Source of the DNA: Firmicutes bacterium UBA5010
GTDB lineage: Bacteria; Bacillota; Clostridia; Tissierellales; Sedimentibacteraceae
NCBI GenBank assembly: GCA_002396645.1
Contig: DGYI01000067.1
Coordinates: 13,165-77,164 of the forward strand
Direction: 5' to 3'
Length of the DNA stretch: 64,000 bases
Position 1 is the first letter of the stretch. Each line of letters starts with the position of its first letter. This document shows, one piece after another, positions 3,001 to 6,000 of the stretch. Position numbers: made by a program.

Positions 3001-6000
3001 TGTTTTTCCCATGATAAGCTGTGACATTTCTAAAGGCCTATCTTTTTGTAAAGCTTTTGTAAGCTTATCCTTCTCACGTTCAAGTATATCATCAATATAT
3101 TTTAGTCCGTTGTCAAACTCCGTACCCTGCAAGCTCGTGGCACAGCTGAAAAAATCCTTTATAAACATTTCTCTGTTATCAAGGAGTGTCTTCAATCCTA
3201 AAAAGCTCTTAGACACACTGCTGTTTGCTTCATACAGCTGCGTTAATTTACAGGAATCCTGCAAAGCTTCCTTAATGGAATTTTCATCAATGTATTTTCC
3301 GAAAAATATATGGAAAAAGGTTTCCGGATTCATATCTAAAAGATATTTCTCGTATTCATTTAAACTTACAAAATCATTTATCAGAAGTCCTGTTTTCTCG
3401 TTATAATTAAAGCTTCCCATATTTGCAAAAATAAATTCTAAAAGCTCCAATCCTTTGTTTTGCAACTCATTGAGCATTTCATACAAAAATCTGTATCTTT
3501 TTTTTATTCCTTCTATAAAATTTAAGTCATAAAATTCTTTAAAGCCTTTATTTTTGCCCTCATCAAAGAAAATATTTACAACCAAATTAATCAGTTCGAT
3601 ATTTCTTGAATGATATAAGTAGCAATCCTTTTTTATTTCAACTAAACTCATAATCTTCATCCCATACATTTTATTTATTCACGGTCTCGCTCCACGAGTC
3701 ATCTATAATTATATCATTATTCTATTCTCAATAAAACAATGTTTTTAATAATCTGTCAAATTCTGTTTGACTTTAGTTCACGTTCCTTGATTACATCATC
3801 TTTTTCAATATTGCCGCAAAGCAAAGGCGATAAAGGATTATGGGAGCTGTAATTTTGATTAACCTTTATCCTGCTATGATTTGCATAGCAATATATACAA
3901 TAGTTTCTGCATGTATTATACATTCCTATATCAATACTTTCCATACAGCCGCAAGCCTCTCGCTGATTTTTATCCTTATTCAGCTTTAATTTATATCCGC
4001 AGATTTTTTCTATTTTCTCTTTATCTATACAATGTGCATGCTTAATATTATATTTGTCAAAATCGGAGTTTTCGGCACAGGTATCAATTATTATGCCATA
4101 TTTCTTTGCAATTTCGCTAAAGTCAGAAACAATATCTATTTGCTGTTTGGCTGAGGGACTCACAATATCTGATGCATTTATATTTTTTTCTATGCTTTTA
4201 TAATAATCTAAAAAGCTGATAGTGCATTTCTCTGTATACTTGCTAAGCTTAGATGCCAGAAGTCTAAAATATTTGATATGATAATCTACTGTGTATTTTT
4301 TATTCAGAAGTATCGGGTCATAGCGCCATATGATTTTATCTTTGCCTATTTTTTCCGAAAGACTGATAAATGAATTAATAACAGATTCATTTTTAGAGGG
4401 AACATTAGGCTCTATATCTTTCCCATAAGGATTAAGAGTAAATTGAAAATAGTATTTATAACTTTTTAATTCCTCAAGTCTGTCTATCATAGGAGCAGGA
4501 TTTTTTGTCCAGAATACAATGGCATCTACGACTTCAGGCGATAAATTAATTTTACTGATTTGTCTGAAATTCATAGGATTTCTGACGATTACACTGCCCT
4601 CTCTTATTCGATTAAAAAACCATTCAGAATAATATGCCGGTATGTCTGTTCTTCTGCTTGCACTTATTATCACAAATCATCACTCCATGTAAGCAAATTT
4701 CCAAGAGGTATTTCAAAGCCCAGACTTTTATACATTTCAAGGTCAGCATCAGCACAGCCTACCCACAGTGATTTTATTCCCTGCAATTTACATTGTGAAA
4801 AAACAAAGTTTGACAGTTGTCTTGCTAAGCCTTTTTTTCTAAAATCAGGTGATACGTAAAAATCCTCAAATATTCCGCTCTTGGAAAAATTAAAAGTTGA
4901 GTAAAGCTCACATACAGAACACATTGCAGCTAAATCATTATCCTGCTTTGCCACATAAAAGCTGATTAAATTATCCTTTATAGCAAGCTTTAATTTATCC
5001 AATTCCTCATAAGTTGGTGTGTTCTCTCCTATAGAGCTTTTATAGTCTCTTACCAATACCTTTAATTTTTCAAAATCCTCTAAGTTAAACTTCTCAAAAA
5101 TCATAAAGTTTCTCCATATCTCTATATTTTTAAACATGTTCTACAACTAATTTTATCAGAAAAATCAATTAATTCAAGCAAATTATCCTCTGTCGGTTCT
5201 AATGGGCAAAATGCTCGGCATAAAAAAGTGAAACAAGTTTCACTCTATGGAAGAATCATTCCGATTCTTCATTTATCTGATAGGAAAGAGAACTTTCCTA
5301 TCAGATAAAAAGAGGGTGTTGCAAAATCTACAAAAGCAACAGCCTCTTTGGTATCAAAGATTTACCTTTTTATACTGACAGCGCTTACACACTGTCAGCT
5401 TTTTACCGTTATCAAGCAATATCTCATATAACAGCTTAATTCTTTCCGCTTTACAAACAGGACATGTCCCCCTGCCTCCGGCAGGCAAATTAATCAGTCC
5501 TTTTCCTCTATTTTTCTTCGACATTTGAATCTCCTTCTATAGCATTATTTGAATCTTTTAAGTTTTTGTAAACAATCTTTCTTATAGATTCACTGCTTAA
5601 GCAAAACAATTCAGATAACTCTCCTATAGTTAAGCCCTCTTTATATTTTTTTAAAATTTCATTATTTCTGAAAGTAATTATTTCCTTTGAACCGCTTTTC
5701 TTACCCCAAGTTCTTCTTACATTGTCCAATTGAGGTATGTATATTCTCTCGCCTTGAATATAGGTTTGAATTTCCTTTAAGAGTTCAGGAGGAAAAATAT
5801 CTTTCGCATTTCTGTAGCTCAATAAACAAACCTCCTTCAATATTGAAGCACGGATATTATCTTTCAAGAATCATATCTGTCCAAAATTCAAAAGGAGTAA
5901 ACCCATTTTTCTTGCAAGAATTAACTGCCTCATAGCAATCTCTGTTTAAATAAATGTAAATGGTCTCTTCCGGATATAATTTGGACAATTGAATTATTGT

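Follow-up and report, generated by a model that had tools for sequence, protein, structure and literature searches.

Small modular hairpin repeats gained and lost at oligo-T tracts in a lineage of uncultured Clostridia-like Bacillota

Repetitive extragenic palindromes (REPs) are palindromes of 20-40 bp outside genes, with a stem of 7-20 bp, a loop of 2-5 nt and a conserved tetranucleotide, GTAG or GTGG (or CGTC), placed 0-2 nt 5' of the hairpin (PMC6006769, PMC3733652). A genome usually has more than 100 of them, standing alone or grouped with other motifs in mosaic clusters (PMC2817692). Composites, the REP doublets forming hairpins (REPINs), may be the replicating unit (PMC3116915, where the term SDR, small dispersed repeat, is also cited). 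A 64,000-nt stretch of contig DGYI01000067.1 from Firmicutes bacterium UBA5010, referred to here as the window, holds three intergenic sites that share palindromic modules, named A, B and C. These modules are an undescribed family of very small hairpin repeats in a lineage of uncultured Bacillota (Clostridia-like). They resemble REPs and BIMEs (bacterial interspersed mosaic elements) in being extragenic, in having an unpaired tag 5' of the stem, in standing singly or in mosaics and in lying at gene ends, where a role in termination and mRNA stabilisation has also been suggested for REPs. With a stem of 8-10 bp, a loop of 2-4 nt and an intergenic location they have the dimensions of a REP, but their tag is ATAG in the position of GTAG, three of four bases alike, and not GTAG, GTGG or CGTC. 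Their stems are rich in AT, their hosts are Clostridia-like, and exact copies number 1-6 per metagenome-assembled genome (MAG) instead of more than 100, a figure that counts exact matches only. Unlike a REPIN doublet, the unit gained at one site of the window (site 3) is a single one of 22 nt, and clusters are co-oriented, whereas the REPs of a BIME alternate regularly in orientation. Because of the ATAG tag, the co-oriented clusters and the apparently lower copy number the modules are not filed as REPs; membership in the classical family of REPs and REP-associated tyrosine transposases (RAYTs) is not established. RAYTs are Y1/HUH transposases whose genes typically stand between inverted REPs.

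Other described repeats offer partial likenesses. In the Neisseria intergenic mosaic elements (NIMEs) the 20-bp dRS3 repeat, ATTCCC-N8-GGGAAT, flanks RS modules, and these arrays have been tied to recombination end-points and the exchange of adjacent genes (PMC1797815). The modules share with NIMEs the intergenic mosaics of small hairpins, a strain-variable number of modules and a place at a recombination junction, here a 5-kb cassette in module B. They contain no ATTCCC-N8-GGGAAT, their clusters comprise 1-4 modules, and the resemblance is architectural; NIMEs have been reported as Neisseria-specific, and no phage or recombinase is known to target the modules of the window. Group IIC introns insert just downstream of the stem-loops of intrinsic terminators, an inverted repeat and then Ts (PMC1702495). 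The analogy is in target choice only, these introns being retroelements of about 2 kb with a ribozyme and a reverse transcriptase, versus 22-110 nt without ribozyme or open reading frame (ORF). The BOX elements of Streptococcus pneumoniae are, like the modules, modular intergenic repeats of a Gram-positive organism; they are built as boxA-boxB(n)-boxC from modules of 45-59 bp in fixed A-B-C order, occur about 100 or more times per genome, are predicted to fold stably and can affect the expression of neighbouring genes. The comparison is one of descriptions, and to our knowledge BOX elements have not been described as landing in terminator T-tracts. SDRs of 21-27 nt were reportedly described by Elhai and colleagues in 2008 in heterocyst-forming cyanobacteria. 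They too are discrete noncoding insertions of about 22-27 nt, often nested in or next to other repeats, in another phylum and with other sequences; we know of no link between them and T-tracts or terminators.

The three sites with shared palindromic modules, described in an initial annotation of the window, were all recovered and lie far beyond chance. Module A (AGYGAAACAAGTTTCRCT) is found exactly at 2548-2565, 5227-5244 and 48617-48634, against about 0.2 matches expected, and none of 100 shuffles reached the observed count. Module C occurs at 2515-2536 and 5280-5301 (0.03 copies expected), and module B at 5251-5269 and 48641-48659. The bare B pattern, being too short, is not significant by itself; the extended repeats that hold it are (repeat families D2 and D5). 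Relative to shuffles, the 156-nt region round site 2 has a folding z of -8.3 for the minus strand and of -9.3 for the plus strand. Nearly all genes of the first 47 kb are on the minus strand. This strand is the informative one, and A reads on it as a tagged hairpin with a T-run. The module sequences first proposed are correct, and they are better read on that strand, as ATAG-tagged hairpins ending in a T-run. Module A then consists of a single-stranded tag, (Y)ATAG, and a hairpin of 8-10 bp, AGYGAAAC-TT-GTTTCRCT; its 22-nt core, ATAGAG-YGAAAC-TT-GTTTCR-CT, is followed by T5-T7. Module B is a hairpin unit of 22 nt and module C one of about 34 nt. The presence of C had been recognised, with a stem of 9 bp; the stem in fact spans 14-17 bp and shows three compensatory changes between sites 1 and 2 (AAC/GTT versus CTG/CAG). 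The loops of B, already noted to differ over a preserved stem, are ATTCC and GGAAC, the latter with the reverse complement GTTCC. They are reverse complements of each other with one mismatch, which indicates a flipped loop and not free variation.

On the minus strand, site 1 runs from the stop codon of an HTH_5 gene through A, C and half of B to the ribosome-binding site (RBS) and ATG of a response regulator. Site 2 runs from a native terminator hairpin, in whose T-tract the composite begins, through C, B and A to a promoter-like sequence and a GNAT gene. At site 3 a native bidirectional terminator is followed by B and then A, in agreement with the earlier description of an A-B copy beside a different terminator hairpin. 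Here the native terminator received A in its T8/A8 tract, the T-run of A (48616-48610) overlaps with the stop codon TAA (48609-48611) of a plus-strand chromate-transporter gene, and the loop of B is flipped relative to canonical B.

The modules are dispersed over several genomes. When species-representative genomes and metagenomes were scanned with the pattern AGNGAAACAAGTTTCNCTCTAT, 16 loci were found in the former, where about 1-3 are expected by chance, and 13 in the latter. About 25 of the A matches are AT-rich and intergenic with unrelated flanks, and four stand in GC-rich or coding-like contexts and are chance-like. The three sites had been allowed to be possibly the only copies in the genome; the roughly 25 further intergenic loci of A speak otherwise, and this dispersal, with the gain and loss between strains, supports the initial reading of a small structured repeat resembling REP/BIME or miniature inverted-repeat transposable elements (MITEs). 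The A core is hosted by at least five Bacillota/Clostridia MAGs and several metagenomes. Exact copies of A number 6 in OH_PBrB_159, 5 in CTOTU48147 and 2 in UBA7510, with MAG_142 also a host (exact 22-mers per representative MAG: 6, 5, 2, 1 and 1), and further hosts are the assemblies JAEAME01 and ERZ778028. The window itself has three copies of A in 64 kb, and about eight more variant copies were seen in about 230 kb of non-targeted flanks.

The tag (Y)ATAG(AG) is present in all 27 independent exact copies, and in variants. A alone is the commonest form, and some copies also have B or C-B. B lies directly 5' of the tag in 9 of the 27 (8 detected by script, plus locus L025 with a variant B stem; L-numbers such as L001, L017 or L041 denote loci and contigs compared with the window). 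The B-A unit of site 2 recurs in L014-L016, L023, L025, L031 and L032, and C-B-A is found at window sites 1 and 2 and in UBA7510 (L002); copies of C that covary with that of site 2 are those of site 1 and of L002 6752-6841. B and C stand only on the 5' side of A, in the mosaics A, B-A, C-B-A and A-C-B-A'', and neither was ever seen without A in about 400 kb of sequence examined.

The presence or absence of modules differs between near-identical strains. Strain contigs belonging to the species of the window, 95-99% identical to it, were reached via window proteins; the queries were neighbouring proteins other than the products of the GNAT gene (4670-5137) and of the second chromate-transporter gene. 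Between strains that share 98-99% identity, modules are gained or lost with exact boundaries (Table 1), the polarity resting on three strain groups. L037, L038 and L039 are without exactly the 25 nt of site 3 B, and the two resolved single-module gains each comprise 22 nt plus a 3-nt flanking repeat (TTT and TAT), in low-complexity flanks where coincidence is possible. Both resolved insertions, at sites 3 and 1, lie inside the T-tract of a native intrinsic terminator.

At site 1, one module copy is the junction of a 5-kb gene-cassette rearrangement. The initial annotation had described 2494-2572 as a cyclic permutation of the modules; the arrangement was correctly seen, and the permutation turns out to be a truncated A'-C-B-A'' composite (A' and A'' being the A copies at its ends) that is intact in a sister strain. 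The window composite is cut inside B at about 2495/2496, and beyond about 2495 follow the RBS and start of a response-regulator/histidine-kinase/ABC/FtsX cassette of about 5 kb, which explains the apparent permutation. The left junction of the cassette lies inside B, and the right one exactly at the boundary between hairpin and T-run before the TTGACA promoter; in L017 and L018 the cassette is absent from this place. L017 (12092-12130) and L018 (3660-3705) have an intact native terminator after the HTH_5 gene (ACCACTAAAATAT...ATATTTTGGTGGT), which at window 2570-2590 and in L040 is without 29 nt, its 3' half, the deletion being bounded by CTA microhomology. As a result, A, which lies 21 nt past the stop codon of that gene (2590-3669, minus strand), is the sole terminator-like hairpin after it at site 1.

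As to the cassette itself, it spans window 1-2495 (minus strand) and L040 2797-7790, between the HTH_5 gene and an ABC-2 operon, and encodes an OmpR-type response regulator, a histidine kinase, an ABC ATPase and an FtsX permease of 829 aa.

Table 1. Modules, native hairpins and strain alleles at the three sites of the window
Feature	Position	Strand	Sequence	Remarks
Site 1, A core	2548..2569	-	ATAGAGCGAAACTTGTTTCGCT	T-run 2547-2542 next on minus strand
Site 1, C hairpin	2510..2541	-	ATAACATAGGAAAG-TTTT-CTTTCCTATGTTAT	
Site 1, truncated B	2496..2509	-	AAATGAAGAATCGG	5' half and linker
Site 2, A core, T variant	5227..5248	-	ATAGAGTGAAACTTGTTTCACT	T-run 5226-5222 next on minus strand
Site 2, B hairpin	5250..5270	-	GAAGAATC-GGAAT-GATTCTTC	-8.8 kcal/mol
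Site 2, C hairpin	5273..5308	-	TTATCTGATAGGAAAG / CTTTCCTATCAGATAA	16-17 bp stem, loop TTCT, -23.6 kcal/mol
Site 2, native terminator-like hairpin	5309..5349	-	AAAGAGGCTGTTGC...GCAACACCCTCTTT	Upstream minus-strand gene; context, not repeat
Site 3, A core	48617..48638	-	ATAGAGCGAAACTTGTTTCGCT	Absent in L041, present without B in L037-L039
Site 3, B, discrete 25-nt indel	48639..48663	.	GAAAGAATCGGAACGATTCTTATAT	22-nt hairpin and 3-nt TAT repeat
Site 3, native bidirectional terminator hairpin	48668..48703	.	ATATCGGGATATG...CATCCCGATAT	Between convergent chromate-transporter and SPFH genes; context
Site 3 state, L041			...ATT TAA A8 TATCGGG	Empty; A8 is the T8 tract of the native terminator
Site 3 state, L037-L039			A7-GCGAAACAAGTTTCGCTCTAT-A5	+25 nt: 22-nt core and three T
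Site 3 state, window and L036			L037-L039 form plus GAAAGAATCGGAACGATTCTTATAT	Further +25 nt: 22-nt hairpin and TAT repeat
Site 1 state, L018			native hairpin-T6-TTGACA promoter	Empty, no module
Site 1 state, L017			GGTGGTTC-(A'-C-B-A'')-T7-TTGACA	About 110 nt inserted in the same T-tract
Site 1 state, window and L040			A-C and half B	Then ~5-kb cassette with its own terminator hairpin

The position of the copies relative to genes was counted for 30 exact copies of module A. Thirteen are tandem and co-oriented, 7 convergent and 10 tandem and anti-oriented, and divergent gene pairs have no copy between them (P about 0.02 to 0.001, according to the share assumed for divergent regions), so that divergent promoter regions are avoided. 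Two thirds (20 of 30) are co-oriented with an upstream gene, and all copies judged genuine are intergenic. Copies consisting of A only often lie directly 3' of another hairpin (L012/13, L002, L001/6), and anti-oriented copies have their A-run side 0-24 nt from a stop codon, the TAA of which is often shared. The common denominator of the copy sites is an oligo-T/oligo-A tract; in these genomes such tracts occur mostly at terminators and just after stop codons. The neighbouring genes are unrelated in function and include GNAT, chromate transporter, SPFH, MreD, ECF transporter, dipeptidase, LysM, citrate transporter and GDPD genes.

Module A has the parts of an intrinsic terminator, namely a G+C-containing hairpin, an immediate U-tract and a location at a gene 3' end. 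A scan with a terminator consensus calls it at 2567-2546 on the minus strand, with a predicted hairpin of -8.5 kcal/mol (9 bp, CUUG loop) followed by U5-U7; the RNA hairpin of site 2 A, also of 9 bp with a CUUG loop, reaches -7.0 kcal/mol. An inserted A followed by its T-run thus resembles a second terminator, and from its sequence it is predicted to act as a terminator or insulator of minus-strand transcription.

The hairpins are kept while their sequences change. Across 12 distinct variants of A, 96.7% of the cells are paired and four of the ten pairs show double changes; the covariation score was reached by none of 500 shuffles, and slid controls pair at 43-61%. In divergent relatives the tag (ATAGAG) and the tail (CTYTTT) are preserved, and the stems change in a compensatory way (GTGAAC-NTN-GTTCAC, GTGAAGC-TT-GCTTCAC, GCGAATT-TT-AATTCGC). 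G-U pairs lengthen the A helix only on the minus-strand transcript, and one T-G variant (L016) pairs only on that strand. Loop flips occur in all modules (GGAAY versus GTTCC in B, TTCT versus AGAA in C, TT versus AA relative to the tags in A), which is the behaviour expected of short inverted repeats. A variant of A with the tail CTTTT, the T variant, is found in 5 of 9 copies with B and in 1 of 18 without B (Fisher p = 0.008). C-B-A'' occurs in the same arrangement and with the same A'' variant in UBA7510 (L002) and L017, where the flanks are unrelated, which argues that composites spread as units. Within clusters the tags all have one orientation, and in L031 the B-A units stand in direct tandem.

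Three individual copies may be described here. At L031 846-991 a tandem duplication of 72 nt comprises the B-A unit together with the RBS (GGAAGG), ATG and first codons of a downstream MreD-like gene, and the loops of the duplicate B modules differ (CAGAATG versus CCTTTGG). At L025, about 960-1010, a large perfect palindrome with ATAG (GTGAATGATATATAGAATGAA...TTCATTCTATATATCATTCAC) stands beside a B-A copy. An empty allele was sought for the copy in L012 and L013, and a subfamily variant was found to occupy the site instead: L043, from a 97%-identical relative, carries at 1600-1680 the orthologous copy (compare L013 4555-4640 and L012) as the variant GAAGC-TT-GCTTC with the tag TAAAGAG. The native hairpin just upstream shows compensatory changes between these contigs (GGCAAGACAC/GTGTCTTGCC in L043 versus GGCAAAACAT/ATGTTTTGCC). 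The variant copy may reflect in-situ evolution, conversion or an independent insertion.

Rfam, searched at gathering and at permissive thresholds, contains no family for the modules, which the initial annotation had likewise placed in none known to it. Only a tRNA of the window reaches threshold, and the best sub-threshold matches over the modules are microRNA hairpins (24 bits versus a gathering threshold of 88, E = 0.17), which are attributed to chance. A phage or plasmid origin was rejected after a scan of viral contigs with the A pattern (0 matches) and a blastn search of the 101-nt C-B-A sequence against plasmids and phages, which gave a single chance match of 33 nt. Integron attC sites had been suggested by the GNAT-rich array of genes on one strand; by eye, the R'/R'' core GTTRRRY/RYYYAAC does not fit, and most intergenic gaps are too short. 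No fit was found with the consensus of LexA, of cre or of the other operators compared. A small ORF in B-A (ATGAAGAATCGG...) was rejected on the ground that the loops vary in length and sequence. As for a mobilising gene, a Pfam search of 30 neighbouring proteins revealed no relevant one, tblastx comparison of the 2.5-kb flanks with each other gave no recurrent flanking ORF or parent insertion sequence (IS), and tblastn searches of about 370 kb of related sequence with IS608 TnpA and the Escherichia coli RAYT found nothing, which is a weak test. A MITE would carry terminal inverted repeats like those of a parent IS and a target-site duplication of constant length; the only structures resembling terminal inverted repeats in the modules are the 8-10 bp arms of the hairpins.

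The explanation that we favour, with a little more confidence than doubt, is a non-autonomous mobile repeat of REP/BIME-like character, mobilised in trans as a tagged hairpin of single-stranded DNA, which would target T-tracts and then serve as an extra terminator or insulator on the strand of the T-run. By analogy with the REP/RAYT and IS200/IS605 systems, which provide the model, movement would be catalysed by an enzyme reading the tagged hairpin in single-stranded DNA. The A core would enter an oligo-T tract, typically that of a terminator already in place or the run of A/T directly past a stop codon, B and C would join on the 5' side of A, and some of the mosaics would then spread as units. 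A more radical version, which we consider rather unlikely, pictures the modules as ultra-small, self-propagating parasites of terminators that home to the oligo-T tracts of other terminators and whose mosaics mark the recombination junctions of cassettes. Each insertion would recreate a hairpin and T-tract, hence a working terminator and a fresh target, and mosaics could in this way build up stepwise. Such mobilisation would need a mechanism undescribed for units so small; candidates are an HUH-type enzyme reading ATAG, or reverse-transcribed 3' ends of terminated RNA.

Several observations weigh against a mobile repeat moved in trans. No transposase, RAYT, integrase, reverse transcriptase or recombinase was found in the window or beside the copies elsewhere, a weak test in that only a small part of any genome was covered. 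Exact copies in whole MAGs are few beside the hundreds of classical REPs, and the copies collected are near-identical partly because exact matches were searched for. The regularity of 22 plus 3 nt rests on two events, and the homopolymeric flanks make both the ends of the element and any target duplication ambiguous by several bases. It is conceivable that the empty alleles are not ancestral and arose by precise deletion of palindromes between T or TAT repeats; even then, insertions must at some time have brought one and the same core to about 25 unrelated loci. The hairpin of A is weak for a terminator, and in the anti-oriented third of the copies A cannot be a canonical one.

A rival explanation does without an enzyme: ordinary terminator hairpins would pass between T-tracts through replication template switching, primed by oligo-T/A microhomology, or through short-patch ectopic conversion, and be kept as harmless or useful. 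Both resolved insertions do lie inside homopolymer T-tracts with T on both sides, no transposase was found in the window, among the neighbours of the copies or in the 370 kb searched by tblastn, the loop flips of A, B and C show active intrastrand template switching, and the cassette junction falls exactly at boundaries of hairpin and T-run in three strains. Random terminators would hardly leave one specific 22-nt core dominant across species and loci, however; the 5' boundary is sharp at YATAG even with 0-2 T of left-flank microhomology, and B was added at a TAT junction and not in the T-run. We hold enzyme-free copying to be improbable. The nested, 3'-anchored series in which A is commonest, followed by B-A and then C-B-A, never with B or C alone, would also suit an origin from RNA, in which an abundant master transcript yields stable 3'-terminal fragments, hairpins with their U-tract, that undergo reverse transcription and integration at A/T-runs, their ends set by RNases at the hairpin feet. 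All copies end in a T-run and are located in an A/T-run, with boundaries that coincide with hairpin feet. Against this stand the gain or loss of B alone beside an existing A at site 3, the A at both ends of A-C-B-A'', the coexistence of A subfamily variants, which does not fit a single master, and the lack of any reverse transcriptase in the sequence examined; we know of no bacterial precedent for copying of this kind and regard it as quite improbable.

Selection for a function at each site is a different kind of explanation. The very stable fold (z about -8 to -9), the G-U pairs that form only on the minus strand and the T-G variant of L016 would be natural in a functional structured RNA, such as a small RNA derived from a 3' untranslated region or an element that stabilises or processes mRNA, whose sequence is selected at the RNA level. 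Such an RNA has no match in Rfam, its orientation to the flanking genes would be mixed (20 co-oriented versus 10 anti-oriented), its loops are unconserved and flip freely, and site 2 leaves no space for a promoter, since the T-tract of the terminator upstream already holds the start of C; this reading is very doubtful. Least credible of all is an operator or binding platform for a DNA-binding or nucleoid protein, selected at the members of a regulon. It would explain why A is a near-perfect palindrome with asymmetric conserved flanks and why several copies stand a short way upstream of genes, some of them response regulators (window site 1, L012/L013). Yet the functionally unrelated neighbours speak against the operator of one regulon, none of the 30 copies lies in a divergent promoter region, gain and loss take place as insertions of 25-110 nt in terminator T-tracts, and stems that covary round a tag that alone is fixed would be unusual for an operator.

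If the modules are indeed a repeat mobilised in trans, they would be an AT-rich, Gram-positive counterpart of the REP/BIME/NIME class, with clean natural before-and-after alleles at a single site (empty, with A, with A and B). The movement of tiny hairpin repeats, a question open since REPs were described, would become directly testable. Terminator T-tracts would, as the alleles suggest, be a favoured landing pad. The alleles would also point to a route by which terminators may be duplicated, replaced and used as junctions for the exchange of gene cassettes, as in the window, where the native one has decayed and the inserted one remains. In practice the modules could serve as a strain-typing marker in these uncultured lineages, and annotators may be warned that identical terminators at many loci may be repeats.

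Some features of the hosts and of the window lie apart from the modules. Window 52143-57803 and L007 (OH_PBrB_159) share about 5.6 kb of coding sequence that is 73-77% identical at the DNA level. Markers disagree on the placement of the host lineage, the nearest named relatives of the window chromate transporter being Lachnospiraceae-like (Mobilisporobacter, Anaerotaenia) and those of the OH_PBrB_159 citrate transporter Tissierella-like. From about 2590 to 26000 the minus strand of the window carries a long array of small genes, including many GNAT acetyltransferases, methyltransferases, a nitroreductase, ASCH and GyrI-like proteins and a beta-lactamase-GNAT fusion. Relative to L017, whole-gene indels are found at 7073-10749, 16405-17013 and 18111-20085, with junctions between a stop codon and the next RBS and with no A, B or C module at any of them.

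A second family of hairpin repeats is present at window 62003-62128, 50140-50215 and 6843-6896 (plus strand), at L002 1798-1854 and at L044, about 4555-4590; UBA7510 has it too, as does a further organism from the same metagenome. A superfamily of the form AAATG-hairpin-CYATRG, joining B to this second family, was considered and is not claimed, the pattern being weakly enriched (10 versus about 2.4 in shuffles) and mostly B itself. The unit of the second family, about 50 nt long, reads CATAG-TCTCAAY-TAY-RTTGAG-CCATTTGAA-ATATCC-TAC-GGATAT-TATAG; at 62003-62128 it is present as 2.5 units in tandem, at 50140 as one copy whose inner hairpin is longer, and at 6843 lies a related single hairpin, CATAG-AATCGGA-ATAT-GTCCGATT-CATTTA. 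All copies lie just upstream of the starts of minus-strand genes, with a -35-like TTGAGA inside the hairpin on the minus strand, and the family has a YATAG tag and a CATTT linker in common with modules A and B.

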